From NCBI GenBank assembly GCA_016210585.1, contig JACQTX010000204.1, positions 1-42,630 on the forward strand: DNA of 42,630 nt, written 5' to 3'. Under the pieces are notes generated by a model. It saw nothing but the letters and a program-made list of their open reading frames with translations, made no database searches and had not been told where the DNA came from. Within the stretch, counting starts at the first letter, position 1, and each line of letters starts with the position of its first letter. This stretch comes from Chloroflexota bacterium. Lineage in GTDB: Bacteria; Chloroflexota; Dehalococcoidia; Dehalococcoidales; JAFGLR01. A program made the position numbers and the translations under genes. This document shows positions 1 to 18,513 of the stretch, piece after piece.

Positions 1-9
1 GGGCGCAGG

Positions 10-552
10 GTGTGGAGTATAGACCTGGAGACGGTCTGGCTACCCTTTTTCCTGGCCACAAACACGATGGGCGAAACGCGCGTCCCCTCTGAAGCTATCG
101 GCGCACCGCTACGCCTGGCTTATAACCCCGATGGCACGGTGAAGTTTTCCAAGTCAGGCAGGCCAATCACCAAAGTGGCTAAAGAGCTGGGCGATAGCAT
201 CCGCCTGGTGCGGGAGAACTTCACCGCTTCCCTCAGAAGCTACGCTAACGGCGTCATCGCCGAAAACACCGAAGGCTACAGGGCACAGGTAGAAGCGGCC
301 AGACAGGCGGGCGCACCAATCATGGCACGGGACAAGGCCAGCCTGGACAAAGCCTTAGCGGATATGATTGCCGAATCTATGCGCGAGGCTGAGGGGAAGG
401 TTGAGACTGTCGTCAAGGCTGAGGGGGAAGCGGGGCAACCAGCCGTCACCAATGCCGAAGCGGAAGCGAAGGCCGAAGCGGTAAGGGAAGCGGAAGCCAT
501 AGCGAAAGGCAAGTCCCGCGCCAAAAGGGAAAAGGTCGCCGTCCCCGCGTAA
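10..552 (+). CDS. Hypothetical protein with an Ala/Glu/Lys-rich C-terminal tail; probably 5'-truncated by the window edge
   Basis: The frame is open back to base 1 (GGG CGC AGG GTG). Co-oriented with the downstream run; no recognisable motif. Confidence 0.6.
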   Translation: MWSIDLETVWLPFFLATNTMGETRVPSEAIGAPLRLAYNPDGTVKFSKSGRPITKVAKELGDSIRLVRENFTASLRSYANGVIAENTEGYRAQVEAARQAGAPIMARDKASLDKALADMIAESMREAEGKVETVVKAEGEAGQPAVTNAEAEAKAEAVREAEAIAKGKSRAKREKVAVPA

Positions 553-608: not shown

Positions 609-1133
609 ATGGCTAAGCCAAAGTGGGTAACGCCTGAACGCCAGTCTCACCTGGTAAAGCTCTTTACCCGCAGCAAAGGCTTCTGTGTCTTTGGTCACAA
701 GCCATGCCCTTTCCCAGAGCACCACTACGAGGTCTTTATTGAAGGTCTCATTGGTGACTGGGTAGCTGATGATAAGGCACAGCAACAAGCGGCATGGCAA
801 GAGGCACGAAGGCAGATGCACCGCCTTGCGGATAGACGCTATCCGCTACACGGTCAATTCAGCGCCGTCACCAAAGACATCTTCTATGAGGCACAACCGC
901 AATACTACCTGGAAGGCTTGGGCATAAGCGGGCTGACCTTCCAAGCCTTTGTCAAAGTCCGTGTTGCCTCTAGCTTTGTCCACCTTCATGTGAACTTGGG
1001 CGACACCTTAAAGACGGTAAGCAAGGCCAAGAGACGCAAGGCCATACGCTACGGGAAAGAATTACCCGAAGAGACACAAAGGCAAATAGACAGGCTGTGT
1101 AGCCTAGCGGTGAAACATTACTTAGAGCACTAA
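609..1133 (+). CDS. Hypothetical protein, possible C-x6-C-x4-HH metal site
   Basis: Purine-rich RBS (AAAGGGGG) before the ATG; FCVFGHKPCPFPEHHY motif; followed by a terminator-like hairpin. Confidence 0.75.
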   Translation: MAKPKWVTPERQSHLVKLFTRSKGFCVFGHKPCPFPEHHYEVFIEGLIGDWVADDKAQQQAAWQEARRQMHRLADRRYPLHGQFSAVTKDIFYEAQPQYYLEGLGISGLTFQAFVKVRVASSFVHLHVNLGDTLKTVSKAKRRKAIRYGKELPEETQRQIDRLCSLAVKHYLEH

Positions 1134-2166: not shown

Positions 2167-2224
2167 CATCGCCCCTGGGCTGATAGGAACGTCCCGCGGC
2201 TTGCGTGTGGAAGGAGCAAGCAGA

Positions 2225-2716
2225 ATGACCAGCACTGACGACAAATGGATTGATGACATAGTTGGTGTATTCTTTGACCCCATCATCGTAATGCCCGGCG
2301 GCTGGGGGGACTCCTTACCTGAGTGGATAAAGGGGGAAATCACCCTTGAGCGCCTCATTGAGAATATGAAGGCGCTGAAGGGCGGGAAGCCTGCAGCCAC
2401 AGATGCCGAGGTTGTCGCTTACCTCTACACCGCTTCGCTCACCGCGCCGATGCCTGACCCGTGGCCGCAAATCTACCTTTTCACCATGACACAGCTGATG
2501 CGCCGGTCAAAGAAGGTTGAATTGCCGTCCGATATCGCTGTGGAGTCGCTCACCGAATATCAGAAAGCCAAGCTGCACTACCTTCGCGACTGGCTGTATG
2601 AGGCGCGCACACGGGCAAGAAAGAAGACTGGACACAGCCAGAAGCCAGACGAGGGCAAGCGAATGAAACAGCAACTCGTGCAGATGTCGATGTTTGATTC
2701 AATTGACGGGGCATGA
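2225..2716 (+). CDS. Hypothetical protein with a C-terminal QMSMF beta-clamp-binding-like motif
   Basis: RBS AAGGAG before ATG 2225; a flexible basic tail ends ...QQLVQMSMFDSIDGA. Confidence 0.75.
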   Translation: MTSTDDKWIDDIVGVFFDPIIVMPGGWGDSLPEWIKGEITLERLIENMKALKGGKPAATDAEVVAYLYTASLTAPMPDPWPQIYLFTMTQLMRRSKKVELPSDIAVESLTEYQKAKLHYLRDWLYEARTRARKKTGHSQKPDEGKRMKQQLVQMSMFDSIDGA

Positions 2717-2783
2717 CTCGATTAAGAGCTGCAGAAAACGAAAGACACATGACTTGTGATGGCTAAGAGAAAGGAGGAACTAC

Positions 2784-2972
2784 ATGGCCAGGGTATTTGT
2801 CTATGACGGACGGGAGTTTCCCGACCCGGACCCCACCTTGAGCGCGGAAGAGGTAAGGCGGATGATGACCGATTTCTTCCCCGAGCTCGCCAACGCCGAG
2901 GTGCGGGAACACCAGAGGGGCGAAGACACCCTCTACGAGCTGGTCAGACGAGTGGGTACAAAGGGGAGCTAG
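2784..2972 (+). CDS. PRTRC system protein C (prokaryotic ubiquitin-like, Prok_Ub)
   Basis: RVFVYDG.EFPDPDP.LS.EEVR...FFPELANA...VGTKG signature; strong RBS AAGGAGG; upstream of E2/JAB/E1 genes. Confidence 0.88.
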   Translation: MARVFVYDGREFPDPDPTLSAEEVRRMMTDFFPELANAEVREHQRGEDTLYELVRRVGTKGS

Positions 2973-2995
2973 CCCCTGGTTGAGGGGGTGGACAG

Positions 2996-3265
2996 GTGAA
3001 GATAACCGACATTATCCGTGAAGTCTTGGAAGTTGACTTCTCCGATGAGACGTTAGACCGGACAGGCACTAGGTGTGCCGAGTTCCTGGCATCCCGAGAC
3101 GAAGCGAAGCTGACTCGTCTCTGGCAGAACTGGCTCACGCTCAACGAGCTAATCAGCGGCAGCGCTAGTGTTCCGGAGCTGATCCTGCTCGGCTACTACC
3201 TCGGCACCCTCAAGACCGAGTATGACACTGAGGTCAGGGACTTAGCCAGGCTTCTCGAGAGGTAA
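2996..3265 (+). CDS. Hypothetical protein within the PRTRC cassette
   Basis: 89-aa ORF, RBS GAGGGGGTGG, tightly packed in the operon. Confidence 0.65.
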   Translation: MKITDIIREVLEVDFSDETLDRTGTRCAEFLASRDEAKLTRLWQNWLTLNELISGSASVPELILLGYYLGTLKTEYDTEVRDLARLLER

Positions 3266-3291
3266 AGACAGCTAAAGGCAGGAGTCGGAAA

Positions 3292-3513
3292 TTGGATACA
3301 GATTCCGTCCTCAGGGCGCTGAGACAGGTGCCTGAGATGCGGCTTCGCCTCATCGAAATGGCCTGGGGGATAACCGGAGAGGACGGCTCTCTCGACCTTC
3401 AGCGGGTCGCATTCTATCGCCTTGAGATGGCAGAGGCTATTGGCGAAGCACAGGCCTATGTGCAGGCCACCAGGGAGGCGGTGCACTGTCTGAGAGAGAT
3501 AATCCACTCCTGA
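3292..3513 (+). CDS. Hypothetical helical protein within the PRTRC cassette
   Basis: RBS AGGAG before TTG; 73 aa. Confidence 0.65.
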   Translation: MDTDSVLRALRQVPEMRLRLIEMAWGITGEDGSLDLQRVAFYRLEMAEAIGEAQAYVQATREAVHCLREIIHS

Positions 3514-3549
3514 GGCTCGCCCAAGATTTGTATGGAAAGGGAAGCGGAA

Positions 3550-3750
3550 ATGAATATGGACAAACAAATCCTGACTGAGACTGTGACAGTCCTTACTGAC
3601 GCCGTCATGGTGACCCTTGATGGCAAGCAATACAGCATCTCCTGGCGGCACACGCACACCGGCAAAAAAGGCATCATGGTGCTGAGTCCGCAGGGAGAGG
3701 TGAATGTCGTAGACAGGAGTGACACGGGACACTGGCTAATCATCAGGTAG
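3550..3750 (+). CDS. Hypothetical small beta-rich protein within the PRTRC cassette
   Basis: Co-oriented ORF; start 3532, 3550 or 3556. Confidence 0.6.
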   Translation: MNMDKQILTETVTVLTDAVMVTLDGKQYSISWRHTHTGKKGIMVLSPQGEVNVVDRSDTGHWLIIR

Positions 3751-3764
3751 CGGAGGACAGTGCC

Positions 3765-4544
3765 GTGTCTGAAAGGGACGGGCCGCTCCTTGTTCTCGCA
3801 CGCAGGCTGCTCTCGCTCGGCCCACCTTCTTTGAGCACCCTGATAGCACGCGTGGCCGAAGCGGAGGAGTATGAAGACTTCGTGAGCCTGGTGAGGGAGT
3901 TCCTGCCGGAGCGAGAGCCAGATATCCTCCGGGAGGCTACCCCGGCCCGTCAGATAGCTGCCTTCGCCAGCCACTTTCGCGACCGCTACTTTCCCCTGCA
4001 GGACTACCTGGAAATGGGCGATGCAGAAAGCTATGGCGACCTCACCCGGGACATACCGGTCATTCCCCTGGGTCTCTCTGACCAGGATTATCATGCTATC
4101 GTCTCGGACTGGCGGAGTGGCTTTCAGCTTATGACCTATCTTGTCGAGAGTCCCTGTGCCGGGGAGGCACGCCTCCCCCTGGCTGAGGCCTGCCAGGAGT
4201 ACATTCCGGTAAGCCTTATGGAACAAGTTCCCGAGCATGGTTTCAGCCCGGGCGAACTTCGCTATCTGCTGGGCAATACAGAACACAGGGCACTGGCCCA
4301 CTGGGCTGACATTGTTTGGCACGACACAGGCAATTTCTTCCTCGACACTGACGATGCGAACCTGTGGAGCGACGAGCTTCCGAACTGGGACGACGGAACA
4401 GTGGCCAACCTCACCAGAGAGTGGCAGCAAGCGGAAGCTATGCAGGAGGAAATCGACAACCTGGTGGCATGGCTTGAAGAAGACCCACCGGCACATTTTC
4501 GCGAGCTTCTGGAGTTCACACATGGCAGGCAAGAAAATGAATGA
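3765..4544 (+). CDS. Acidic protein at the PRTRC protein F position (F-like)
   Basis: RBS GGAGG; 259 aa, very acidic and Trp-rich; lies between the Ubl (C) and E2 (B) genes as F does. Assignment is by synteny only. Confidence 0.55.
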   Translation: MSERDGPLLVLARRLLSLGPPSLSTLIARVAEAEEYEDFVSLVREFLPEREPDILREATPARQIAAFASHFRDRYFPLQDYLEMGDAESYGDLTRDIPVIPLGLSDQDYHAIVSDWRSGFQLMTYLVESPCAGEARLPLAEACQEYIPVSLMEQVPEHGFSPGELRYLLGNTEHRALAHWADIVWHDTGNFFLDTDDANLWSDELPNWDDGTVANLTREWQQAEAMQEEIDNLVAWLEEDPPAHFRELLEFTHGRQENE

Positions 4545-5250
4545 AGCTATCGCTAAGAGTAAGATTGACACACTGACACACGATCCGGCGGGCTACAAGT
4601 GGGCGTTGCCGGAATCCCTGGAGGTGCCCGCCGACGAGCTCAAGGCACGCCTGGACTTCTACCAGGATGCGGTCATGCTCTACCTGGTGGAGGCGGGCGT
4701 TATTGCCACCCGGATGGTGTCGGCACGCGATGTCGCACTGGCTTTGCTGAGGGAAGTGCCACTCAGGTCGGGGCTTTTGCCCGAAAACACGCTCTGGTGG
4801 GGCCAGGGCAGGGAAGGGGTAGAGATCGCCCTGTGGCGGCCGCCGAAGATATGGCCTGTTGCCCTGCAGACGGAGCCTTTCCGGCCTCCGCGGCGGCTCA
4901 AGTTGCCCATGCCCGGCCTCATCTTCCTCTGCTCGCCAGGGAGACCGCCGCGTGTTTATGCCGCTAAGAAGAGGCCAGCCAGACTTGAAGATACCGTCTA
5001 CCACGCTCCCCTGTTCAACGTGTTCAGCGACGGCCGGACCTGTCCTGGCACGCATAAGTATCCCGGTGCCACCGGGGAAATACCGGAGTCCTTCTTTGCC
5101 AGCTTCTTCACCCCTGCCGCCGACTATATGGGTCGGTCGCAGAAATACCCCAATGACCTGCTCAAGCTGTGGGCAGAGCTGGACGGCCATAATAGATACC
5201 CGCTGGGAGACCTGGTGCCCTTCGGCAAGGTAGAGGACATCATGAAATGA
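4537..5250 (+). CDS. PRTRC system protein B (prokaryotic E2 family D)
   Basis: LPMPGLIF...YHAPLFNVFSDGRTCPG with the putative catalytic Cys; overlaps the upstream stop; alternative start 4522. Confidence 0.85.
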   Translation: MNEAIAKSKIDTLTHDPAGYKWALPESLEVPADELKARLDFYQDAVMLYLVEAGVIATRMVSARDVALALLREVPLRSGLLPENTLWWGQGREGVEIALWRPPKIWPVALQTEPFRPPRRLKLPMPGLIFLCSPGRPPRVYAAKKRPARLEDTVYHAPLFNVFSDGRTCPGTHKYPGATGEIPESFFASFFTPAADYMGRSQKYPNDLLKLWAELDGHNRYPLGDLVPFGKVEDIMK

Positions 5251-5792
5251 GACCGGTCGGTTACCTCTTGAATAGAGGGACAAACCTGGACGGCGAGCCG
5301 GGTCTTTTCTATGACTACATCCTGGCCGGGAACGGGCTTTTTGTCCGGGCCAGGAGCAGTCTTCTGGCAGCCACGGTCAGCATTGCGTGGGCGCAGGTAA
5401 GAGGACTTGCCCTCCTCGCGGAGAAGATGGTGCTTCCCAAAGGCAAGATACCACGTCACCTGTATGACCTCGCCCTCTCTGTCCTATTCGCCGATAGCTG
5501 CCACGAGCGCTACCTGGCCATTACGTGGGAAGGCGAATACCGCCTGAGAATGCCGCCGCAGGAGGGCAGCTCCGGTGGCGTGCAATACGAAGTGATGCCC
5601 AACACCGTGGTGGACATCCACAGCCATGCCGGTATGAGCGCCTTCTTCAGCAGCACCGATAACAGAGACGAGCGGGGACTGCGCCTCTATATGGTGGTAG
5701 GCAGACTGGATACCCTGGTGCCGGAAAGAGAAATGCGAGTGGGCGTCTACGGCTATTTCTCTCCTGTGGAATTTGATGACGTCTTCGCCTAG
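5247..5792 (+). CDS. PRTRC system protein A (JAB/MPN+ metalloprotease)
   Basis: E...VVDIHSHAGMSAFFSSTDNRDE JAMM motif; ATGA overlap with the E2 gene. Confidence 0.9.
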   Translation: MRPVGYLLNRGTNLDGEPGLFYDYILAGNGLFVRARSSLLAATVSIAWAQVRGLALLAEKMVLPKGKIPRHLYDLALSVLFADSCHERYLAITWEGEYRLRMPPQEGSSGGVQYEVMPNTVVDIHSHAGMSAFFSSTDNRDERGLRLYMVVGRLDTLVPEREMRVGVYGYFSPVEFDDVFA

Positions 5793-5803
5793 TTAAGGGT
5801 GCG

Positions 5804-6595
5804 ATGCACAGATTGGACAACAGCTTCACACAGCGCCACTTCACGGTGACGGTAGTCGGGTGCGGCGGCACGGGCGGCTTTGTGGCCGAGGGCCTCTGTC
5901 GCCTGCTGCCCCGACATGCCGGCCTGGCCCTCATAGACCACGACCGGGTGGAGGAAGAAAACCTCACTCGCCAGAACTTCACCCGAGAAGACCTGGGGCG
6001 GTTCAAGAGTGAGGCTTTGGCCAGGAGACTGGCCCGGAAACACGGACGCACGGTGGCCTACGCGGCTCTCCCTGTTGGCATGGTTGAGCTGGCACTACCG
6101 GGTATAGTTATCGGTGGCGTGGACAACGGCCTGGCCCGCCGGGACATAGCCGCCAGGCTGAAGGGCTTTTCGACTATTGGGCTGATTAATCAGGGCTATG
6201 TTTCCAGGCCGAACTGGTGGGTTGATGCCGGCAACGGGGAAAACTACGGGCAGATACTCATCGGCAATGCCGACAGGGCCATTTTTGAGAAGGATGTTTG
6301 CTACGCCATGCCCTTGCCCACGCTGCAGAGGCCGGAGCTGCTGGCACAGGCACCATCCCAGGAGCCCAGCTGTGTCCAAATCGCTGAGCAAGGGCCGACC
6401 ATGAACCTGGCCATGGCGGCCGTGGTGCTGGAGGTGGTGAGGAGGCTTATTGAGGGCACCTGCCCCTGGATGCAACTATACCTTGACCTGGCCGAAGGAA
6501 CGCTTCATTCCGTCCCGGCCACGCCTGGTGCAGTTACGAGAATACTGGGCATTAAGAAGCAAAAAATAATTCAGAAAGGAGGAGGCACAAGATGA
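5804..6595 (+). CDS. PRTRC system ThiF-family E1-like adenylyltransferase
   Basis: VVGCGGTGG nucleotide-binding loop, DHDRVEEENLTRQNF, VDN..ARR, WVDAGN, PSC (putative catalytic Cys). Confidence 0.9.
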   Translation: MHRLDNSFTQRHFTVTVVGCGGTGGFVAEGLCRLLPRHAGLALIDHDRVEEENLTRQNFTREDLGRFKSEALARRLARKHGRTVAYAALPVGMVELALPGIVIGGVDNGLARRDIAARLKGFSTIGLINQGYVSRPNWWVDAGNGENYGQILIGNADRAIFEKDVCYAMPLPTLQRPELLAQAPSQEPSCVQIAEQGPTMNLAMAAVVLEVVRRLIEGTCPWMQLYLDLAEGTLHSVPATPGAVTRILGIKKQKIIQKGGGTR

Positions 6596-6888
6596 GCGAG
6601 GAGACCAAGATTGTCATTGCCCTCAAAGGCAACACAGCATCGGTAGGCGTCCAGACACTCGGCTGTGACCCCGTCTTTGCCCGTGTCGAGGGCGACCTGC
6701 CGGCAGTCCTGCAAAACATTCCCGGCCTAGTAGAGAATGCCCGCCGGCGGTGGGAAGCGAACCAGCGCTACCCGAAATGCGAGACAGTGCTGTCACCGCC
6801 AACACCAGCGCCAGCACCGTCCTCAGGACAGTCGGGGCATTCATCCAGGCGGGAGACGGCGACTTCCAGCCTGCCCAGAATGTTCTGA
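6592..6888 (+). CDS. Small protein with a Pro/Ser-rich tail, possibly PRTRC protein E-like
   Basis: ATGA coupling to ThiF, RBS AAGGAGGAGG; folded N-terminus plus low-complexity tail ending LPRMF. The E assignment rests on architecture and context only. Confidence 0.5.
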   Translation: MSEETKIVIALKGNTASVGVQTLGCDPVFARVEGDLPAVLQNIPGLVENARRRWEANQRYPKCETVLSPPTPAPAPSSGQSGHSSRRETATSSLPRMF

Positions 6889-6956
6889 TACAGATAATTG
6901 CCTGCCCTGAGGTCGACAGGGTTTCTATGAAAATACATTGAAAGGAGGTGACAAAG

Positions 6957-8066
6957 ATGCAAATACGAGTAGATAGGCTCAGGGAGGCCCTGGAGCTCCT
7001 TCACCCGGTCGTCCCCAGGAAAACTTCTCTCGATGTGCTGGGCAATGTCCTGTTAAGGAACGGCCGGGCGGCAGCCACCGACCTCGAGGTGGCCGTTGCC
7101 CTGGAGCTTCCCGAAGTCGAATGCGAATGCCTTCTCCCGCAGGAACTGGTGGCCAAACTGCTCAAATACGTGCCGGGCAGTGAGGTGCTCACCATTGAGC
7201 AGAAGGGTAAGAGCCTGGGGTTTTCTTGGGACGGCGGCCAGGCTACCTATGAGGTACCCAAGCCTGCCGATTACCCGCCGCTGCTGGAGGTTAAGACAGG
7301 AGAAGCGCAGGCTGTGGATGGGGAGACACTGGTGCCGGCGCTTTCAGCGATGCTGGCGTACTGTGCCACCGCGAAGGACCGGCTTGTGCTGACCGGGGTG
7401 CACCTTACCCTGGGTGAAACCACAGAGGTAGCTGCCGGAGACGGCTTCAGATTGGCCTTCCAGACCTTGCCTATAGCCGTGTCCCCGGTGGATGGTGTCG
7501 AGGGGGCGGTCATTCCTGCTAGTGCAGTCACTATCCTGGGACACCTGTGGCGAAAGGTCCCGGGGGCACCATTGGATGGTTTCCCGGCCCGGCTGCTCAA
7601 GCGCCGGCTGGAGCTTACCCTCAACAAGACCATGCTCCAGGTACGCTTCGGGCGAGTAACCCTCACCACCAGGCTCATCGAGGGCGCCTCACCCAATTTC
7701 AAGCAGTTTATCCAGCAGGAAGCTGCGCTCAAGGTGCGTATGCTAGCCCCGGACTTCGAGCGGGCGGTGCGCCGTGTCCAGGACATGGCCAGAGAGAACT
7801 CAGGAATTGTCCGCCTTGCCTGGTCCGGCGCCGCCCTGTCCGTCTCCGGCCGGAGCAGTGAGAAGGGTCAGGTTGAAGTCAGCTTCCCGGTGACGAGCGA
7901 AGGTGGCGACGGTAGGGTAGCCCTGAACGTGAGCTACCTGCTGGACTACCTCCGTGGCCGAGAGGGCCTGGTAACCATGTCTGTCATCAGCGAGAAAGCC
8001 CCTGTCCTCTTCCGGCACGGCACATCCCCAGTGGTGGTGATGATGCCTATCTTTGTCCAGTGGTAG
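6957..8066 (+). CDS. dnaN: DNA polymerase III beta sliding clamp, divergent accessory copy
   Basis: About 370 aa; ATDLEV, LTGV, GDGFRLA, LIEG..PNF, ALNVSYLLDYL and C-terminal VMMPI motifs; RBS AAAGGAGG; not in a dnaA-dnaN-recF context. Confidence 0.9.
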   Translation: MQIRVDRLREALELLHPVVPRKTSLDVLGNVLLRNGRAAATDLEVAVALELPEVECECLLPQELVAKLLKYVPGSEVLTIEQKGKSLGFSWDGGQATYEVPKPADYPPLLEVKTGEAQAVDGETLVPALSAMLAYCATAKDRLVLTGVHLTLGETTEVAAGDGFRLAFQTLPIAVSPVDGVEGAVIPASAVTILGHLWRKVPGAPLDGFPARLLKRRLELTLNKTMLQVRFGRVTLTTRLIEGASPNFKQFIQQEAALKVRMLAPDFERAVRRVQDMARENSGIVRLAWSGAALSVSGRSSEKGQVEVSFPVTSEGGDGRVALNVSYLLDYLRGREGLVTMSVISEKAPVLFRHGTSPVVVMMPIFVQW

Positions 8067-8069
8067 CCA

Positions 8070-8151
8070 GGTGGGGGCCGGGTGGTTCAGACCCGGCCCC
8101 CACCGCGCCTGGGGAAGAGACGCCATTGCAGCCAGCATGTTTTTCTCCCAG
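8070..8151. repeat. Two tandem hairpins after dnaN
   Basis: Perfect 14-bp IR GGTGGGGGCCGGGT/ACCCGGCCCCCACC (8070-8104), then imperfect CTGGGGAAGAGAC/GTTTTTCTCCCCAG; no clear U-tail. Confidence 0.7.
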
Positions 8152-8176
8152 TATGGGTTTGATAGGAGAAGTAGTA

Positions 8177-8494
8177 ATGGACGCACTATTGGTAATCAAT
8201 GCTGTTTTCCCCACCGGACAGATTGTGGCTACGAGGGGAGTTTACGATCTGGCGTGCCAGAACCCGGACTTTGCCAGGTTCATCCAGAAGTCCCTCAACC
8301 GCCACGTCAAAGGCGACTGGGGAGACGTGGATGACGAGGATAAGCAGACCAACGACCAGGCGCTCAAACAAGGGAATCGGTTGCTATCAGCCTACAACGA
8401 CGACCGCTTTCCAAGAAATGGCAATGCGACCATCTGGATAATCACCGAGGCTGACCGGAGCGCGACAACTATCCTCTTCCCTGACGAATATTGA
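8177..8494 (+). CDS. Plasmid/ICE-associated hypothetical protein (GDWG...WIITEADRS.TT family)
   Basis: FPTGQIVATRG, RH.KGDWGD, N..AL..G.RLLSAY, IWIITEADRSATTILFPDEY; RBS AGGAG. Confidence 0.8.
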   Translation: MDALLVINAVFPTGQIVATRGVYDLACQNPDFARFIQKSLNRHVKGDWGDVDDEDKQTNDQALKQGNRLLSAYNDDRFPRNGNATIWIITEADRSATTILFPDEY

Positions 8495-8567
8495 CCCGTT
8501 GAGCCTTGCGACTGTGGTAACTGTTCAAATCTACAGTGCTCACCATGCCCGAGAAAGGAGGTTCAAG

Positions 8568-8813
8568 ATGCCCGAACGAGTTGAGCTTCTTCAGGCAGAT
8601 ATTGAAGTGGAAGGACACCGCTTCACCGTTACGGCCATACCAACGGCAACATCGGGAAGCTGGTACACCGTCCAGGATGCCTGCGAGGTCTGGGGAGCGG
8701 TCGCCATAGGCCTTGATGGCACGGTGGTGGGTTGGCGAAGCCCTCCCGATGAGAAGTATCGCCTGCAGCTGGAAGAAGCCATTAAGAGGGCGTTCGGTCT
8801 GCCGGAAGTGTAG
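8568..8813 (+). CDS. Hypothetical protein
   Basis: RBS AAAGGAGG before ATG 8568; 81 aa. Confidence 0.7.
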   Translation: MPERVELLQADIEVEGHRFTVTAIPTATSGSWYTVQDACEVWGAVAIGLDGTVVGWRSPPDEKYRLQLEEAIKRAFGLPEV

Positions 8814-8861
8814 AGGCCAGGTGGCTCGAATCGAGTTACCCGTACCCGGAAAGGAGATGGG

Positions 8862-9068
8862 ATGGCTTACCAAGACCAACTGGAGTGCCCCCATTGCCAC
8901 AGGATGATTGATATCGAGACCGAAATTGAGGGCGATGACGGCTACATGAACCTGTACCCGATTGTAAAGCCGGCAAAGCTGAAGGCTCCAAAAGAGACGC
9001 GATTGGATGAGGTCGGACCGGGAAAAAGACCGGAAAACCAGGCAGAAGGGGGTGATATGAAGGACTAG
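8862..9068 (+). CDS. Hypothetical small protein with CxxC
   Basis: RBS AAAGGAG; LECPHC motif. Confidence 0.6.
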   Translation: MAYQDQLECPHCHRMIDIETEIEGDDGYMNLYPIVKPAKLKAPKETRLDEVGPGKRPENQAEGGDMKD

Positions 9069-9128
9069 CTGCGCGCAAAAAGGGGAGCACGTGCTCCGAA
9101 GATTGAACGGAGAGGAGGTGAAAAATAG

Positions 9129-9902
9129 ATGGCTAGAAGAAGTATCTGGAAAGGAGCTATCGCCTTTGGCATGGTGGCTATCCCTGCCAAGCTCTACTCG
9201 GCAACCGAGGACACGGACATCAGCCTGCACCAGTATCATAAGGACTGCGGCCACCGTATCTCCATGCCCAGGTATTGCGGCACCTGCCAGAAGATGCTGG
9301 CCACTGCCGACATTACCAAAGGCTACGAGGTGGGCGACAGCTATGTGCCTTTGTCTGAATCTGACTTCCAGAGCCTGCCCCTCAAATCGGTGAAGACGAT
9401 CGAGGTGGTGGAGTTTGTGGATGATCGCCAGATAGACCTCAGGTGCTACGACAAGCCCTACTTCCTGGCCTCGGATGAAGGGGGCTACAAAGCCTACCGG
9501 CTCTTTGTCATGGCGATGGCAGAGGCGAAACTGGCGGCAGTCGCCAAGCTCTGCTATCGCGAAAGGGAACGGCTGTCCGTTGTCCGCCCCTACCAGGGGG
9601 TAATGCTGCTGCAGACACTACGCTATGCCGATGAGCTGAAGGAATGCTTCGACCTCAAGCCACCGGAGTATCCCATCAGCAGCAAGGAGCTGGAGCTGGC
9701 CATATCCCTGGTCAAAGCCATGGCCGCCCCCCAGTTTGAGCTGGCCAGGTACCACGATGAATACCGCCAGGCGCTGGAGAAGCTGATTGAGGCCAAGATT
9801 GCCGGTGAAGCCTTGCCAGTTGCTCAGGAAGCCCAGTTCCCGGTATCCGATGTGGCGGATGCCTTACTTGCCAGCTTGAAGCTGGTAGAAGCGAAGCGGT
9901 GA
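9129..9902 (+). CDS. ku: Ku DNA end-binding protein (NHEJ)
   Basis: RSIWKGAIAFGMVAIPAKLYSAT, KGYE, PYFL, LLQTLRYADE, YHDEY motifs; HKDC...CGTC Zn-type bridge; no long basic tail. Confidence 0.95.
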   Translation: MARRSIWKGAIAFGMVAIPAKLYSATEDTDISLHQYHKDCGHRISMPRYCGTCQKMLATADITKGYEVGDSYVPLSESDFQSLPLKSVKTIEVVEFVDDRQIDLRCYDKPYFLASDEGGYKAYRLFVMAMAEAKLAAVAKLCYRERERLSVVRPYQGVMLLQTLRYADELKECFDLKPPEYPISSKELELAISLVKAMAAPQFELARYHDEYRQALEKLIEAKIAGEALPVAQEAQFPVSDVADALLASLKLVEAKR

Positions 9903-9991
9903 TAGCCGCTCAATGCGCTGGGCCTGAGAGCGATTTCAGGTTCAGGCATAAGGTGGCTATCCGTGACTGAATTCCAGTCGAATGGAAGGTA

Positions 9992-10891
9992 ATGAAAACG
10001 ATTAAACCAATGCTGGCCCAGACAGCCAGTGAACCGTTTGCCCACAAGGATTGGCTCTTTGAACTGAAGCTGGACGGGGTAAGGTGCGTCGCCTACCTGG
10101 ACAGGAAGACCCGACTGCAGGCGAGAAGTGGGCAGGATATTGCGGCCCAATTCCCCGAATTGCAGGAACTACACCGGCAGGCGGTGCAGCCCTGCATCCT
10201 GGATGGAGAGATTACTTGTGCCACTTTCAACCAAGTTCAGCACCGTATTCACAGGACTAAAGCCCTGGACATCAGGGTGGCCGCAAAGCTCTACCCGGCC
10301 CGCTTCTTTGCCTTTGACATCCTGAATATCGGCGGCAGAAGCACGATGCCCCTTGCTCAGACAGCCCGCAAGGAAACCCTGGCCACGGTGATGAAGGAAA
10401 GCGAGTATGGACTGACCCTGCCCTGGCGGGATGGTGAAGGGGTAGCCTTGTTTCGCGAAGTCCAAAGTCGCCGTCAGGAAGGTATTATGGCGAAGCTGAA
10501 GTCAGCGCCCTACGTAGAAGGAAAGCGGGTGAACTGGTGGCTCAAAATCAAGAACTTCCACGAAGGCACTTTCTATGTCTGCGGGCTGACCGAGGGCGAG
10601 AATGACCGCAAGGCCACCTTTGGCTCACTCATACTGGGAGAACTGAGAGACGGCAAATGGGTCTATGCCGGCAACGTCGGCACTGGCTTTGACCAGCAAC
10701 AACTCAGAGAGCTGTCCGCATACTTCGATGCTCTGAGGGGAGACTGTCCCTTCGAGCACGTGGATGTGGGACGGCCAGTCAAGCTGTGGACCAGGCCGAT
10801 TGTTCAGTGCGAAGTCCGGTTCCTTGAGCGGGGTGGCGACGGCAAGCTGCGCTTCCCCAGCTTCAGACAGCTAATGAGTGAGTTGCGGTAA
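9992..10891 (+). CDS. ligD: ATP-dependent DNA ligase (stand-alone LigD ligase domain)
   Basis: PMLA, ELKLDGVR (KxDG), ILDGEI, AFDIL, EGIMAK, WLKIK, VGTGF, LRFP; no POL or PE domain. Confidence 0.9.
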   Translation: MKTIKPMLAQTASEPFAHKDWLFELKLDGVRCVAYLDRKTRLQARSGQDIAAQFPELQELHRQAVQPCILDGEITCATFNQVQHRIHRTKALDIRVAAKLYPARFFAFDILNIGGRSTMPLAQTARKETLATVMKESEYGLTLPWRDGEGVALFREVQSRRQEGIMAKLKSAPYVEGKRVNWWLKIKNFHEGTFYVCGLTEGENDRKATFGSLILGELRDGKWVYAGNVGTGFDQQQLRELSAYFDALRGDCPFEHVDVGRPVKLWTRPIVQCEVRFLERGGDGKLRFPSFRQLMSELR

Positions 10892-10949
10892 CCGAACTGC
10901 TGCACAGCCACTCATCGGAAAAGGCTAACCAGGCGTGATGCTGTCATTA

Positions 10950-11843
10950 TCATTCCAATGCCAGGCGCATTTGGCGGGCGTTTACTACGGCCTTGTCAGC
11001 ATAGCAGTTGTTGAAAAGCACGTGCACTTGTCCGACGCTGACGGCCAGCTTGTGGATTGGGGACACCCACTCCTTCAACTCGTCTTCACTGTAAAGGTAG
11101 TTGAAGCGTTCGGCCGTAGTAATGCCCGCCTTCTCCCAGGCCTCCGTGTTCCGGCCGTGGAAGCGCACTAACGCAATATCAGAGGTTACTTCCACAACGG
11201 GCGGCACACTTGACTTAAACCCCTGCGGCTCATCCACACAGACAAACGGCAGTTTGTTTTCACGGAGAAATGTCATCGTTCGTTCCGCATTCTTCTCATT
11301 CACCCAGGAGCTGTGCCGGAACTCAACGGCAATCCGGTATTGCGGCAGTCTTCGCTGGCATTCGAGAATATAGTCCCTCGGCTCATTCCCCGGGGAAAAC
11401 CAGGGCGGAAACTGGAACAGGACTACGCCTAGCTTGCCGGCGCTGTCCAGCGGCAGCAGGGCCCGCTCGAAGCGGCGCCAGATTTCGTCCAAAAGGCCCG
11501 AAGGGAAATCGCGCTGGTACAGGTTCTTCTTAGCTTTCAAATTGGCTGGTAAGGCTTCCCTGAGGTCTTTGGGCAGCGCCTGCTGAGGCGTGGGGTGCTG
11601 CGTGAGCAGGCGGAAGGCTTTGATGTCGAACATAAAACTGTCTGGAGTCCTGTCTACCCATAACCCGCTGGTCTTCTCGCTGGGCAAAGCATAGTAGGTG
11701 CTGTCCACTTCCACTATCGGAAACTGGCTAGCGTAGTAGCGCAGCCGTTCCTCGGCCGAAGTTGCCGAGGGCGGGTAGAATCGGCCGCTGGCAATCAGCG
11801 TCGGCTCAGTCCATGAGGTTATCCCTACCAGGATTTCACCCAT
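10950..11843 (-). CDS. DUF72 (YecE-like) family protein
   Basis: VEVDSTYYALP, FDIKAF...TQH, LFQFPPWF, AVEFRH.SW, VDEP, RFHGRN, YLYS..EL, FNN motifs. Confidence 0.9.
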   Translation of the reverse strand: MGEILVGITSWTEPTLIASGRFYPPSATSAEERLRYYASQFPIVEVDSTYYALPSEKTSGLWVDRTPDSFMFDIKAFRLLTQHPTPQQALPKDLREALPANLKAKKNLYQRDFPSGLLDEIWRRFERALLPLDSAGKLGVVLFQFPPWFSPGNEPRDYILECQRRLPQYRIAVEFRHSSWVNEKNAERTMTFLRENKLPFVCVDEPQGFKSSVPPVVEVTSDIALVRFHGRNTEAWEKAGITTAERFNYLYSEDELKEWVSPIHKLAVSVGQVHVLFNNCYADKAVVNARQMRLALE

Positions 11844-11852
11844 GTTATGTCT

Positions 11853-13892
11853 TCAGCGCCACATCTGGCGGATTCTATCGGCGATTCGGCCGGGAGGCAC
11901 ATTATCTGCTACCTCGTCTGCATTGCGGTGGCCATCTCCGGCTACCACCGCGTCCATTGTCGCTGTCACGTCCGGCGTGAAGAACCGGCAGCACTGGGCG
12001 TAGCTGTGGTTATCCGTGAGTCCCCGTGACTTGTGGTAGTAGCGGAGCGGCCAGAGGACATACAGGAAGTCACGGGCACGCGTCATGGCCACGTAAGTCA
12101 ACCGAAGCTCTTCTTCAACCTGGCCATTGTCGCCGGTGGCCATGTCAGACGGGAGGCACCCATCGGCGGCATGGATGAGATAGACAACGTCCCATTCCAA
12201 TCCTTTGGCCGAATGGATGGTTGACAGCACCAGCCAGTCTTCATCGCGGCTCGGGGGCCCGGCCAGGTCTCCGGTGGAAACCGGCGGGTCGAGAATCAGC
12301 TCGGCCAGAAACTGCCGGCGTGAGTCGTAGCGCCGGGCAAGCTCGCCGAGGTGCTCGATGTCGTTCGCCCGCGGTCCGGGATCCTCGTAATTCCGTTCCA
12401 GCAACGGCAGGTAGAACTCGCCTATCCTTTCGACCTGTGCCGAGGGTCTATCATCTGCCATGCTCTGCAGGTCGCCCATGAGCGAGGCCAGCCCCGCCAT
12501 CTCCTCTTGTGCTGCCGGCGGTGCTTTGAACGTGGCCAGCGATGACTGTGTGCCATGATTGGCCAGGACATGCTGGAATGCCGCCCCCGCTGTTACCGGT
12601 CCCACCCCTCGTAACAGCTGCAGGACGCGAAACCAGGCCATTTCATCCCGGGGGTTTTCGCTAATCCGCAGGAAACTGATAAGGTCTTTCACATGGGCGG
12701 CTTCCAGGAAGCGGAGGCCGCCATACTTGTGAAAGGGGATATTGTGGCGCACCAGGGCCAGCTCCAGAGACTGGGAGTGTGAGGCAGCCCGGAAAAGCAC
12801 GGCCTGTTTGCGCAGTGGTATGCCCTGCTCGTAGTGCTCGAGCACCTGACGGATGACCGTTTCGTCTTGACGGGTCTCATCCGGACAGGTAATGAGATGG
12901 GGCCGTTGGCCGCCGTCGCGCTTCGACCACAGCTCCTTTGAGTAGCGCTCGCGGGCCTGGCCGATGACGCGGTTGGTGGTCTCCAGTATAGGCCGGAGCG
13001 AGCGGTAGTTCTGTTCCAGCGTCACGACCCTCGTGCCGGGAAATTGGATGGGGAAGTCGAGCATGTTGCGTATTGTTGCGGAACGAAAGCTGTAGATACT
13101 CTGGGCATCATCGCCGACCACGGTGATGCTATTGTTGAACCGGCGCATGCCCAGCAGAATCCCCGACTGTATCGGGTTGGTATCCTGGTATTCATCCACG
13201 AGGATATGGTCGAAACGGCTGCCGATACTGCGGGCGAGGGCTTCTTCCTGGAGCAGGTAATACCAGTAGAGGAGGAGGTCGTCGTAGTCCAGGATATTTT
13301 GCTGTTGTTTGCGCTGGACGTATTCCCGGAAAAGCTGGTTGAGTTCGTCCTGCCACATGAGGCACCAGGGGAAGTCACGGCGGAGGATAGCCTCAAGCTC
13401 TTCGTTGCCATTGACGCGGCGGGAGTAGATGTCCAGGCAGGTGCTCTTGCGCGGGAAGCGCTTGTCTTTGGTCGAAAAGGAGAGATTGTTGCGGACGACA
13501 TTGAGGCAGTCCTCAGCGTCGGTGCGGTCAAGGATGGTGAAATCGGGCGAAAGGCCGGCGGATTGGGCGTATATCCGGAGAAGCCGGTTGGCCGTGGCAT
13601 GGAAGGTGCCGCCCCAGACATGCCGGGCCAGGGAATCGTCTGAAGCAGCCGGAGATGTTGCCCGCTTCAGCATCTCTTCGGCAGCACGCCGGGTGAACGT
13701 GATCAGCAGGATACGTTCCGGCGGGACTCCCTGGGCAATGAGGTAGGCGACACGGTAAGCGAGTGTGCGTGTTTTCCCAGTGCCGGCCCCGGCTACAATG
13801 AGTAACGGCCCGTTGCCATAGGTGACCGCTTCCCGCTGTCGGGGGTTCAAGTCGGCAAGTAGCTTCTGTATGTCTTTGCCCATCTTCACCAC
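11853..13892 (-). CDS. UvrD/PcrA/Rep superfamily 1 DNA helicase
   Basis: LNPRQ, AGAGTGKT, ITFT, GTFHA, LVDEYQDTN, VGDDAQSIYSFR, LEQNYRS, TIHSAKGLEW, EELRLTYVAMTRA; alternative start 13883. Confidence 0.95.
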   Translation of the reverse strand: MVKMGKDIQKLLADLNPRQREAVTYGNGPLLIVAGAGTGKTRTLAYRVAYLIAQGVPPERILLITFTRRAAEEMLKRATSPAASDDSLARHVWGGTFHATANRLLRIYAQSAGLSPDFTILDRTDAEDCLNVVRNNLSFSTKDKRFPRKSTCLDIYSRRVNGNEELEAILRRDFPWCLMWQDELNQLFREYVQRKQQQNILDYDDLLLYWYYLLQEEALARSIGSRFDHILVDEYQDTNPIQSGILLGMRRFNNSITVVGDDAQSIYSFRSATIRNMLDFPIQFPGTRVVTLEQNYRSLRPILETTNRVIGQARERYSKELWSKRDGGQRPHLITCPDETRQDETVIRQVLEHYEQGIPLRKQAVLFRAASHSQSLELALVRHNIPFHKYGGLRFLEAAHVKDLISFLRISENPRDEMAWFRVLQLLRGVGPVTAGAAFQHVLANHGTQSSLATFKAPPAAQEEMAGLASLMGDLQSMADDRPSAQVERIGEFYLPLLERNYEDPGPRANDIEHLGELARRYDSRRQFLAELILDPPVSTGDLAGPPSRDEDWLVLSTIHSAKGLEWDVVYLIHAADGCLPSDMATGDNGQVEEELRLTYVAMTRARDFLYVLWPLRYYHKSRGLTDNHSYAQCCRFFTPDVTATMDAVVAGDGHRNADEVADNVPPGRIADRIRQMWR

Positions 13893-16900: not shown

Positions 16901-17044
16901 AATGGCACCATATAAGCCATTGTGGTCGGTCAGCGCCAGGGCCGGCATATCAAGCTCTTTAGCCCGGGCGACCAGCTCCTCCGGCGGCGAGGCCCCGTCC
17001 AGCAGGGAGAAATGAGAGTGGCAATGCAGCTCGATGTAGTCCAT
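13940..17044 (-). CDS. dnaE2: Error-prone DNA polymerase III alpha (ImuC)
   Basis: PHP domain (HCHSHFSLLDG), GRGSAANS, PDIDID, KVDILGL, GFCKSHAA, C-terminal ARNFC matching the DnaE2 [S/T/G]R[D/N]F-type tail; adjacent to imuB. Confidence 0.93.
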   Translation of the reverse strand: MDYIELHCHSHFSLLDGASPPEELVARAKELDMPALALTDHNGLYGAIDFHKSARKLGVKPVIGVELTLSGGHHITLLARNNQGYANLCRIITKAQLDHSKGSPATDLAILGKHADGLICLSGCRKGEIPSLLFASKKEQAQMAVRKYLSIFGDNFFIELQNNLCPGDTPLCRQLVDLADTMGVRYVATNNVDYTTPDRHRLHDILVCIKNRTTLDKSGHVRRPNAEFYLKPAAEMASLFKEHPQALENTLRIASECNVDLNFAAYRFPEFPLSAGETADSYLAGLCWQKAKERYGDLSEKVRSQVSYELDLIRKLGLSGYFLIVWDIMDYARRNGIPAQGRGSAANSIIAYVLGITRVDPIRNKLFVGRFINEEMSAIPDIDIDVSTNHREKLIQYVYQKYGEEHTAMVCTYITFQARNAIREVGKVLGMPAAILDQMAKTVGAYSAREIGDDLGSLEKFRPYVTTLPWQYFLSFCKEIANFPRHLSIHVGGMIIASCPLCDIVPLERASMPGRVVCQWDKDGVEKAGLVKVDILGLRMLSLIDEAVNLVKQGHNAGFDLSRIPLDDGQVYDMICRGDTLGVFQVESRAQIQTLPRTRPRSIEDLTVEVAIIRPGPLQGNMVHPYINRRQGKEKVTYPHRILKPILEETLGVILFQEQVLQAAIAVAGFSPGEADSLRRAMSHKRSRQAIEDMRQRFLEGAQRNNIGEDVATRVFDTLKGFAEYGFCKSHAASFALLAYESAWLKYYYPAEFYAALLNNQPMGFYTPEVIVGDAKRHGVPVLPVDINHSQGRCTVERSKLRLGFCYVKEMGETAIDDMEQARGAASFLSLEDFYRRTRLGRAEIENLILAGAMDSFNVPRRQLLWELGELEQAGRDTLALEYHTYQVPLPGMTDWEKLAAEYSVQGLSARLHPMQLIRSTISGDGILTGARVMALSSGTRVKTAGYVVCRQAPATAKGHVFLTIEDETGLLNIVLRPDVYQKYRYIVRTEPLLVIEGVLQKKEGISNIIAKQVIPLQEHATAASAAPRARNFC

Positions 17045-18505: not shown

Positions 18506-18513
18506 CAGTAATG

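Follow-up and report, generated by a model that had tools for sequence, protein, structure and literature searches.

A contig of 42.6 kb (JACQTX010000204.1, positions 1 to 42,630, the whole of which was analysed and is called the window below) from a groundwater Chloroflexota genome of the Dehalococcoidia class carries a cassette for a ubiquitin-like protein (Ubl) and the enzymes of its conjugation, followed by a small open reading frame (ORF), o6592, and by the gene of a second, divergent beta sliding clamp. The reading that we tentatively favour is that these genes form a divergent PRTRC-like Ubl conjugation module, which is tethered to the beta sliding clamp or built to act there. A clamp gene of the element's own is near-universal in the clade of the window and absent from most related cassettes; counting all cassettes beside which it was met, there are at least three arrangements, and hosts from two phyla. 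The o6592 protein ends in a conserved stretch that resembles a beta-clamp-binding motif, which makes it a plausible physical link between cassette and clamp. The DNA that holds these genes is best explained as an integrated, phage-related mobile element.

Genes of the Ubl cassette and the clamp

The genes in question are the following.

2201 to 2716, plus strand: orf2201, in which a basic helix follows the N domain and the tail has QMSMF at residues 161-165; start codon uncertain
2784 to 2972, plus strand: Ubl, 62 residues, Prok_Ub or PRTRC_C type, ending in ..VGTKG and then one Ser
2996 to 3265 and 3532 to 3750, plus strand: two small ORFs (89 and 72 residues) inside the cassette, window-specific
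3292 to 3513, plus strand: o3292, a conserved cassette protein of 73 residues, found between Ubl and o3765 in most relatives
3765 to 4544, plus strand: o3765, a conserved all-helical cassette protein of 259 residues, whose 3' end overlaps the E2 start
4522 to 5250, plus strand: E2 of the Prok-E2_D type, with its start at 4522 or 4537
5247 to 5792, plus strand: JAB/JAMM metalloprotease, motif HSHx7SSTD
5804 to 6595, plus strand: E1 of the ThiF type, with GCGGTGG; a set of Arg and Asp residues and the Cys in ..PSC..IAEQG are conserved
6592 to 6888, plus strand: o6592, 98 residues, a small adaptor candidate, ATGA-coupled to E1
6957 to 8066, plus strand: beta sliding clamp (DnaN paralogue), 369 residues, complete and divergent, with pocket motif GDGFRL and C-terminal MPIFVQW

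Ubl, E2, JAB and E1 lie in one co-oriented cluster of overlapping or tightly spaced genes and all score above the Pfam gathering scores of Prok_Ub (6.7e-14, 51.9 bits against 25), Prok-E2_D (5.9e-17, 62.4 bits against 25), Prok-JAB (1.6e-6, 28.5 bits against 25) and ThiF (3.4e-14, 53 bits against 28.1). A first-pass annotation, made from the letters of this DNA, had described the four genes as one plus-strand run, and Pfam and NCBIfam place them as it did. The ATGA couplings that it reported between E2 and JAB (5247-5250) and between E1 and the next ORF (6592-6595) are present, as are the single small ORF and the gap of about 70 bp before a complete divergent clamp; the gap measures 68 nt to the ATG at 6957, which stands 9 nt past a GGAGG, or 59 nt to a GTG at 6948. 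An E2 start at 4237 was dropped as an overlong frame.

Judged from sequence, the catalytic motifs of the cassette are intact, with the Gly of VGTKG kept in the Ubl, Cys174 in the E2, HSHAGMSAFFSSTD in the JAMM protease, and GCGGTGG and ..SC.. in the E1. VGTKG is conserved in the Ubl family, whose members have from 0 to about 70 extra residues past it, and JAB is presumed to trim the Ubl and to remove it. The E2 has two invariant cysteines, Cys137 and Cys174 (242-residue numbering). The second, the putative catalytic Cys, lies within DGRTCPGTH and is present in 8 of 8 aligned sequences, and the D/S-G-x-x-C-x-G motif around it is also seen by eye in PRTRC_B of three plasmids. Some related cassettes (L013 at 8137-9612, L033 and L061) have E2 followed directly by E1 and no JAB gene, so in those copies the protease would be dispensable or supplied from elsewhere.

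The assignment of the cassette to the PRTRC type stands for the Ubl, which scores 53 bits against the curated NCBIfam cut-off of 45.95 for PRTRC_C. PRTRC_B, PRTRC_A and PRTRC_ThiF are the best-scoring families for E2, JAB and E1, and all three remain under the equivalog level (58.7 against 131.45, 56 against 101.8 and 93.5 against 144.75). The ORFs from 2201 to 6888 gave no NCBIfam match to PRTRC_D, E, F or ParB at E 0.01, and those before 2201, scanned with Pfam only, have no ParB domain; the contig starts inside its first ORF, o1, and a ParB gene further upstream is possible. With E2, JAB and E1 below their cut-offs and no match to D, E, F or ParB, the cassette is a divergent relative and not a canonical PRTRC system.

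The o3765 gene occupies the position that PRTRC_F has in canonical PRTRC systems. Homology to PRTRC_F was considered and rejected, the hhalign comparison with PRTRC_F of pHG1 giving a probability of 0.3%. The AlphaFold2 model of o3765 is a helical domain (pLDDT 89.8, pTM 0.81), for which neither Foldseek (best E 0.34) nor VIA (best Z 3.6) gave a match, so the family is not nameable; failed fold searches, for this protein as for o6592, show neither novelty nor the absence of a known fold. PDB profile searches with o3765 and orf2201 returned nothing or one match at E 1.8. The proteins o1, o609, o3292, o3765 and orf2201 have no match in Pfam, PHROGs, PADLOC or PDB, and the last three have none in NCBIfam either. 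The two window-specific ORFs have no counterpart in any related locus scanned, and may be lineage-specific insertions or non-genes.

C-terminal motif of o6592

In the o6592 family the first 60 or so residues form a conserved domain, in which Gly19, Cys25-Asp26-Pro27, Gly34, Leu36, Trp54 and Pro61 are invariant and which is followed by a non-conserved linker rich in Pro, Ala and Thr and then by a conserved extreme C-terminus (QPKFF, QQNFF, QQRMF, QPPMF and others). In the AlphaFold2 model, residues 1-58 form three strands and a helix (beta-beta-beta-alpha) with pLDDT mostly above 90, and the remainder is disordered; a fold search of this domain gave no match (best VIA result 4wsp_A, Z 5.6, root-mean-square deviation 4.4 over 66 aligned residues). 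Such a build fits a protein that would dock onto another through a short linear motif at its C-terminus, and the motif itself resembles that of beta-clamp-binding proteins. According to passages of a 2024 review (PMC11139829), the canonical form of the latter is Q-phi-x-[L/M]-[F/L], or the hexapeptide Q-phi-x-[L/M]-x-[F/L], with QL(S/D)LF among its forms; its Gln is important and not essential, and several clients have the motif at a free C-terminus.

The ending Q..[LMFIW][FLMI] stands at the exact C-terminus in 38 of 41 complete o6592 relatives, the family form being Q-x-x-[FML]-F, with Q-[PQ]-x-[FM]-F as consensus and often Phe at position 4, and about 90% of the family sequences retain the Gln at -5. 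The same ending was found in none of 71 E2, 60 JAB, 50 Ubl, 51 o3292, 24 o609 and 20 o1 sequences and in 1 of 48 E1 sequences, and the background in the genome is 6 of 4139 ORFs of at least 100 residues. To avoid circularity, a profile of the N domain only was searched against 1.84 billion representatives, which gave 577 matches at E <=1e-3. Among the best 150 of these 577, the motif ending is present in 80 and two terminal hydrophobic residues in 110, and many of the remaining sequences are close variants, longer forms or truncated forms.

The clamp (36-row alignment) was docked with residues 66-98 of o6592 (30-row alignment). The ipSAE was 0.49 (0.49, 0.50 and 0.48 in the runs) against 0.01 for the best control, the controls in which either chain was replaced giving 0.00, 0.00 and 0.01; the partner had a pLDDT of 40 or more, and 36% or more of the contacts were common to the runs. 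Of 80 solved complexes 58 reach the mark applied, as do 2 of 110 mismatched pairs, and at values of 0.60 or less only 7 of the 80 reach it, together with both mismatches, counts that hold only roughly here because custom alignments were used. Complexes of clamps with peptides are already solved, so the pass may reflect likeness to them.

Conservation of the clamp beside the cassette

A clamp-centred scan, with one genome per species and an alignment of close clade members, gave 11 loci with 37-54% clamp identity, in metagenome-assembled genomes of Dehalococcoidales and other Chloroflexota. E1, o6592 and the clamp are adjacent in 10 of these 11 loci, and E2, JAB, o3765 and Ubl lie upstream wherever the contig reaches. 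An E2-centred scan of metagenomes gave at least 254 relatives, and the best 80 were used (E2 identity 56-78%). An E1 match is present in 51 of these 80, of which 21 extend at least 900 bp past E1, and the clamp is found in 20 of the 21; in one locus (L057) the clamp is cut after about 100 residues and adjoins an unrelated ORF of 297 residues on the opposite strand. Since the best 80 loci are the closest relatives, the last count describes the clade and not all such cassettes. The gene order recurs in dozens of independent contigs with 37-60% protein identity, which is more than chance.

A sample of the class shows the E2 in 27 of 301 genomes, at 38 places and with up to three copies per genome, and clade-type clamps (at least 260 bits) in six genomes only, with E2 and clade clamp 2-3 kb apart at G042:C31, G285:C1 and G285:C3. 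Of the remaining E2 places, 20 were examined, which belong to other families (41-50% E2 identity) and lack a clamp gene in their vicinity. Ubl, o3765, E2, JAB and E1 are present in each of the 20, and o3292 was detected in 12. An o6592 homologue is present in 19 of the 20, and its ending is in every case (Q/E)TLxL(F/L) or the exact QLSLF, which fits docking to the clamp of the host.

Four viral contigs hold still more distant cassettes. One of them (L098) has a clade clamp upstream of Ubl and the other three have no clamp in their flanks; two of these three have terminase genes downstream, and in one (L100) ParB ends directly before Ubl. A search of viral contigs with the clamp alignment found 0 relatives. 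Among canonical PRTRC systems, plasmid pAZI09 of Azospira sp. I09 (L102) has dnaN directly upstream of PRTRC_E, at the place where other plasmids have the PRTRC ParB, and by coordinates dnaN is placed likewise on a Sulfuricystis PRTRC plasmid. In this stretch of pAZI09 (L102, 6999-12660) PRTRC_E is unusually long, with 230 residues, and ends in ..VTAELF; the neighbouring genes encode an N-6 methylase, the exonuclease VII large subunit and a PD-(D/E)XK nuclease. No dnaN was found at loci of Chondrocystis, Chlorohelix and Geoalkalibacter (E1 28-36% identical), and the dnaN of a Rhodoferax plasmid has no PRTRC genes within 9 kb. Two plasmid records match both the clamp and the E1, at distances of 25 and 59 kb.

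The first-pass annotation had proposed a survey of such cassettes for neighbouring dnaN, ku and dnaE2. Of the three, dnaN recurs beside cassettes in the clade, in L098, in Azospira and in Sulfuricystis; among the related loci scanned, ku is rare and dnaE2 never occurs.

Element-encoded sliding clamp

The housekeeping dnaN of the genome lies on contig C63 and is 28-32% identical to the window clamp, which is thus a second, divergent clamp. Its central and C-terminal domains score above the Pfam cut-offs and its N-terminal domain below (19.1 against 24.4). It matches phrog_947, a processivity factor family, at 3.2e-43 over residues 2-364, aligns over its full length with solved clamps (best 5wce_A, 7.6e-17), and keeps the client-pocket motif DG[FH]RL and the C-terminal MP.F. 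In a collection of 5.8 billion proteins its clade comprises about 82 clusters at 226-802 bits, nearly all from metagenomes, and the next match has 84 bits. Searched against plasmids, the window clamp gave only distant dnaN matches (23-30% identity).

Many clamps of the clade (L009, L010, L012-L016 and L098) are 426-461 residues long and have an acidic low-complexity extension after ..MPMFVQW, which ends in a basic ..KKRRRK..-type tail in L009, L010, L012, L014 and L016. The clamps of the window and of its second copy on contig C227 lack this extension.

Other clamp-motif-like tails

The orf2201 gene lies before Ubl in the window and just past the clamp gene in most relatives. The QMSMF of the window protein fits the canonical Q-phi-x-[L/M]-[F/L], and of the 18 sequences of the family 7 end exactly in Q..[LMFIW][FLMI] and 10 have a penta- or hexapeptide-like motif within the last 12 residues, with endings such as QPSFF, QPTFF, QPTLFEF and QLGLPM. 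From these endings, orf2201 is a candidate for a second conserved clamp client. The protein atlas gave scores below 0.9 for it. The cassette protein o3765 has a clamp-motif-like C-terminus (QLPLPI, QLALAL, QLELAL) in 5 of 64 relatives.

Tails of this kind were also seen outside these families. The DUF72 protein of the window (10950-11843, minus strand) ends in ..ARQMRLALE, which fits the hexapeptide Q-phi-x-[L/M]-x-[F/L] and is a single sequence. Two cassettes without a clamp gene (L140, 3273-5660, and L148, 3274-5637) have a helicase-like protein of about 790 residues upstream of Ubl, in which a clamp-motif-like ..QPAS(M/L)SMF.. stands about 20 residues before the C-terminus. An ORF of about 140 residues between E1 and o6592 may be DUF2958-like.

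Proposed mechanism

From what is known of these families, JAB would trim the Ubl to ..VGTKG, the E1 would adenylate it and form a thioester, and Cys174 of the E2 would carry it. The o6592 protein would dock by its C-terminal motif in the client pocket of a DNA-loaded clamp, which would be the element's own where one is encoded and otherwise that of the host. The machinery of conjugation and deconjugation would thereby be placed at primer termini or forks of the element, where the substrate could be the clamp, a client bound to it, for which orf2201 is a candidate, or even o6592. Because o6592 is coupled to E1 and stays with the cassette even where the clamp gene is missing, the most economical account is that o6592 tethers the activity of the cassette to the clamp.

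Several observations weigh against this proposal. The o6592 of the window ends in ..LPRMF and its copy on C227 in ..PPRMF, both without Gln, and where canonical motifs have an aliphatic residue, at position 2, the family has Pro or Gln. The endings of the FF type and of the LxLF type are confounded with host family. The docking lends weak support to a contact between the clamp and the o6592 tail, and no interface is reported from it; nothing was found that links the N domain of o6592 to E1, E2 or Ubl. The clamp of the host (C63) also has DGFRL and MPMFVQW, so a private pocket code of the element clamp was rejected, and the pocket Phe and this C-terminus give no sign of a private code between clamp and client. 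Homology between o6592 and PRTRC_E was rejected as well (hhalign probability 0.4%).

The modules are also separable. L016, the exception among the 11 clamp-centred loci, has o1, o609 and the clamp with unrelated small ORFs in place of the cassette, and L046, the exception among the 21, has E2, JAB, E1, o6592 and orf2201 and no clamp. No clamp gene was found within 7-9 kb of any of the 20 distant cassettes of the class (tblastn at E 1e-3 with the window, host and Azospira plasmid clamps), nor dnaN within 9-10 kb on 5 of 7 PRTRC plasmids, namely C. necator pHG1, P. propionicus pPRO1 and those of Piscinibacter, Aromatoleum EbN1 and Sphingobium. The own clamp is thus an add-on in some lineages, and the adjacency of cassette and clamp gene described by the first-pass annotation holds within the clade (10/11 and 20/21) and not at these distant loci. 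Finally, a conserved order within the backbone of a mobile element can stem from common descent alone.

Alternative explanations

The separable modules and the possibility of common descent lead to an explanation that we regard as rather unlikely, that two independent modules share one backbone. The clamp with its clients, o6592 and orf2201, would serve replication or takeover, and the Ubl cassette would be their neighbour by descent, with an unrelated role in counter-defence, addiction or the regulation of element proteins. The whole block from o1 to orf2201 is syntenic, and not just the cassette and the clamp; related cassettes lie in early or replication regions of phages, near ParB, a replisome-organiser-like ORF and terminase, and canonical cassettes lie among antirestriction and methylase genes, all as expected if the modules are independent. 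Against such independence, o6592 remains with the cassette in 19 of 20 clamp-less loci and keeps a canonical-looking clamp motif there, and in the window it is coupled to E1 by an ATGA overlap. The clamp gene, too, abuts cassettes in three arrangements in two phyla, and an inner gene of the cassette, o3765, has the clamp-motif-like tail in a few lineages.

That the C-terminal motif of o6592 is not clamp-binding at all, and serves as a degron or as a docking peptide for another partner (for example JAB, E1 or a host protease), is improbable. The missing Gln of the window copy, the Pro or Gln at position 2 and the weak docking support would agree with this, and so would the endings of canonical PRTRC_E proteins (DDLQLF, TAELF, DLASLL, EPSLFG.., EPASLW), which are hydrophobic and without Gln; among the pHG1-like homologues 77 of 87 end in [DN]L[ASG][SD][LF][LI], and in 5 more this motif is displaced by a single position. 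The ending PTLDLF is found in Geoalkalibacter, on the second ORF past the ThiF gene. What speaks for a clamp-binding motif is that the Gln at -5 is kept in about 90% of the family and some relatives have the exact QLSLF, that a second protein beside the clamp gene, orf2201, has the same ending, that the docking signal is lost (0.00, 0.00, 0.01) when either chain is replaced, and that the motif stands at a free C-terminus after a disordered linker, as in several clients described in passages of PMC11139829.

A PCNA-like scheme, along the lines of the first-pass annotation, in which the Ubl is conjugated to a lysine of the element clamp and switches it between replication and error-prone repair by DnaE2/ImuB or end joining by Ku/ligase, is highly unlikely: cassette and clamp are adjacent and conserved with an adaptor-like protein bearing a clamp motif between them, three related copies (window, C227 and L024) have Ku and ligase after the clamp and beta-clamp modifications are hardly explored (PMC11139829, in the passages drawn on here), but dnaE2 and imuB occur at 0 of 115 related loci and lie on the opposite strand in the window, Ku and ligase occur in 1 of the 115 loci apart from C227, and most related cassettes have no clamp of their own, so that a private clamp cannot be the general substrate.

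The tethering of the cassette to the clamp by o6592 may be extended to PRTRC-type cassettes in general, in which PRTRC_E or o6592 would dock in the pocket of the beta clamp, the enzymes would write and erase the Ubl on the clamp or on clients of element DNA, and some systems would bring a clamp of their own. This wider proposal we consider doubtful.

The mobile element and its host

The window is a whole contig (C166) of a genome bin of 2.79 Mb with 254 contigs (assembly GCA_016210585.1), and the stretch is present in 4 DNA sequencing runs, all of one groundwater study; among the sequencing runs that match the stretch, no RNA runs are listed. The conserved block of the element comprises o1, o609, sometimes a zinc-ribbon ORF, Ubl, o3292, o3765, E2, JAB, E1, o6592, the clamp and orf2201. 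The genes of the element outside the cassette are the following.

1 to 552, plus strand: o1, a conserved element protein, function unassigned; the start of the contig removes about 19 residues at its 5' end
609 to 1133, plus strand: o609, a conserved element protein with a Cys/His-rich N-terminal half, syntenic with o1 in relatives
8177 to 8494, plus strand: o8060, an accessory small protein, start codon uncertain, with GDWGD..ED..N..AL..G.RLLSAY..IWIITEADRS.TT.LFPDEY
8568 to 8813, plus strand: o8499, an accessory small protein, with ..IPTATSGCWY..HDA.E.W.A.A..

Homologues of o1 lie upstream of the cassette in relatives and also in L016, which has no cassette. In addition to the searches given above, the o1 homologue of L008 had no PHROG match and the protein atlas gave no usable match for an o1 homologue. 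In the o1 family (window, L008, L011-L013 and L016) a stretch of variable sequence, acidic or rich in Ala, leads up to a C-terminal (R/K)E.VPA, which is conserved and another possible short docking motif. The accessory proteins o8060 and o8499 have no family match in Pfam or PHROGs, and their positions vary among related loci.

At locus L013 the block forms an island of about 12 kb, bordered on one side by genes of a serine recombinase and a tyrosine integrase and on the opposite side by genes of the host, and at L008 it adjoins an antitoxin and a type I restriction system. Distant relatives of the cassette are found inside phage genomes among the viral contigs. Bases 1-58 of contig C214 are identical to positions 2-59 of the window in the same orientation, and are followed on the other strand by the 3' end of a serine recombinase of 531 residues; L013 likewise has a serine recombinase left of o1. 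The shared end may reflect a fork in the assembly, at which variants of the element diverge, or a repeat of a recombination site. Contigs C111 and C82 of the same bin hold fragments of o609 that are 92-93% identical to that of the window.

A second copy of JAB, E1, o6592, clamp, o8060, Ku, o8499, ligase and a DUF72 fragment is present on C227 (6011 bp, same bin), with 81-91% protein identity to the window, and is either a second element of the genome or that of a related strain within the bin. GC content was dropped as an island marker, since the genome has 0.567, the element region 0.55-0.61 and only the part at 19-42 kb is low (0.518), so that borders were not set by it. As clues to an attachment site or to regulation, tRNA genes were sought in the window and Rfam families in 1-20 kb, and neither gave a result; a crude scan of the plus strand from 5303 to 13109 listed no promoter-like or terminator-like sites. 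From about 19 kb onward the contig holds genes of ordinary metabolism. Among them are paralogues of the MttB methyltransferase family at 22191-23639 (minus strand) and 35176-36624 (plus strand), in a region that also has TRAP and Tct transporters, a UbiD-family decarboxylase and an aldehyde ferredoxin oxidoreductase and represents host metabolism with a GC content of 0.518.

Ku, ligase, DnaE2 and ImuB

The genes past the clamp and its accessory ORFs, all identified with Pfam, are the following.

9129 to 9902, plus strand: Ku (2.4e-42), cargo of this element lineage
9992 to 10891, plus strand: ATP-dependent DNA ligase of the LigD ligase-domain type (DNA_ligase_A_M 4.7e-25, A_C 1.2e-18), cargo
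10950 to 11843, minus strand: DUF72 protein
11853 to 13892, minus strand: UvrD-like helicase
13940 to 17044, minus strand: DnaE2
17300 to 18505, minus strand: ImuB

The first-pass annotation had counted translesion synthesis and end joining to the context of the cassette, with dnaE2 and imuB about 6 kb further on, past Ku and the ligase. The distance from the clamp to these genes is indeed about 5.9 kb, but they lie on the opposite strand, and the idea of one unit finds no support in the 115 related loci scanned with the window proteins (11 from genomes, 80 from metagenomes, 4 viral and 20 from the class). Apart from the window and C227, Ku and ligase follow the clamp only in L024, and dnaE2 and imuB occur in none of the 115. 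The block from DUF72 to ImuB is likewise absent from all of them, save a short UvrD-like segment in L009 about 9.6 kb past its clamp. The host has a cluster of DUF72, Ku and ligase of its own on contig C48, whose Ku is 36% identical to that of the element. All four repair genes (Ku, ligase, DnaE2, ImuB) are thus cargo specific to the lineage, or neighbours, and stand outside the proposed mechanism.

Before imuB (18505-18570, minus strand) lies a near-consensus sigma-70-like promoter (TTGACG, 18 nt, TATAAT; 11 of 12 positions). Between its -10 element and the start stands TAGAACAAGTGTATCA, an imperfect GAAC-N4-GTAT repeat, which may, by its letters, be a degenerate SOS box. The LexA-box pattern GAACNNNNGTTC gave 0 matches and the exact GAACN4GTTC is absent from the window.

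Significance

To our knowledge PRTRC-type cassettes have remained unexplained since 2006. Ubl cassettes of the PRTRC-like kind are common on plasmids, on integrative elements and in phages, and PRTRC_B matches 165 plasmid records. The type of cassette is already known, and the features that appear new are the conserved coupling of the cassette to an element clamp in a clade of Chloroflexota, the recurrent juxtaposition with dnaN elsewhere and, above all, the clamp-motif tail on a small protein linked to the cassette. This clamp-docking-like tail offers a first concrete and cheap test for PRTRC-like systems, whether the system works at the clamp, and the dedicated clamp gene that stands against the cassette in some lineages points the same way. 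If the proposal is true, it would be a connection between a bacterial Ubl and the sliding clamp of a kind so far known only for eukaryotic PCNA, and would reveal a way in which a mobile element can direct the replication or repair of its DNA. Passages of the 2024 review (PMC11139829) describe beta-clamp modifications as largely unexplored.

Comparison with known systems

PRTRC—The PRTRC-like cassette corresponds to the 'fourth operon type' (Table 1, row 6d) in the text available of Iyer, Burroughs and Aravind 2006 (PMC1779556), in which 'clamp' occurs only as an author name in the references and 'replication' is absent. The cassette of the window shares with PRTRC (TIGR03734-TIGR03742) the small Ubl with C-terminal Gly, the Prok-E2_D E2 with the same Cys motif, the JAB and the ThiF-type E1, the order Ubl, large protein of unassigned function, E2, JAB and E1, and the location on mobile elements. 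Both also have a small protein in which a low-complexity linker joins the N domain to a hydrophobic motif at the C-terminus (PRTRC_E there, o6592 here). The likeness of o6592 to PRTRC_E and of o3765 to PRTRC_F is one of architecture and position, not of shown descent. The window differs from PRTRC in that only its Ubl passes the NCBIfam cut-off and ParB, D, E and F have no match within the scope given above, in that the adaptor-like gene stands after E1 and not before Ubl, in that a clamp follows, and in that the hosts are Chloroflexota and the related elements phage-like. In titles, starts of abstracts and passages of the literature found, no substrate, function or mechanism is stated for PRTRC. 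Outside subscription journals, no literature was found that links PRTRC with the clamp or that joins any two of Prok-E2, Prok-JAB and the sliding clamp.

Bil and Bub operons—The bacterial ubiquitination-like Bil operons, the subject of a preprint (10.1101/2023.09.26.559546), are a further system for comparison. Bil and Bub operons likewise bring Ubl, E2, JAB and E1 together on mobile or defence islands. Unlike in these, only partial E1 matches were obtained from PADLOC (E1-E2 model 1.3e-11 over about 70 residues, BilD 9.4e-4), whose 2023 version gave no match for E2, JAB, o3765, o6592 or the clamp. The models of Bil, CBASS Cap2/Cap3 and 6A-MBL match only part of the E1, in its nucleotide-binding region, and the NCBIfam 6A-MBL cap2_3 model scores 31.5 bits against a cut-off of 320. 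In the main text of two preprints (10.1101/2024.11.21.623953 and 10.1101/2024.11.21.623966), supplements apart, the E2 of Bil is proposed to choose its target directly, Bub is often linked to DNA-damage-sensing regulators, and neither PRTRC nor the clamp is mentioned.

Clamp clients—Pol II and Pol IV, along with Pol III alpha, as described in passages of PMC11139829, have a short motif at a free disordered C-terminus, with Gln and two hydrophobic residues ending in Phe or Leu. The tails described here resemble it, that of o6592 with the deviations given above, and the QMSMF of orf2201 and the QLSLF of relatives fit the quoted canonical form. Their carriers differ, being small proteins in or beside a Ubl cassette and not polymerases or repair enzymes.

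PCNA modification—The system of the window resembles that of PCNA in that Ubl machinery and a sliding clamp are brought together. It differs in that it has no RING-type E3, that DnaE2 and ImuB are not conserved with the cassette, and that its clamp is one candidate substrate among several. In eukaryotes the PCNA clamp is both ubiquitinated and SUMOylated. Should the wider proposal be true, and PRTRC-type cassettes in general be tethered to the clamp, they would be the bacterial counterpart of these modifications.

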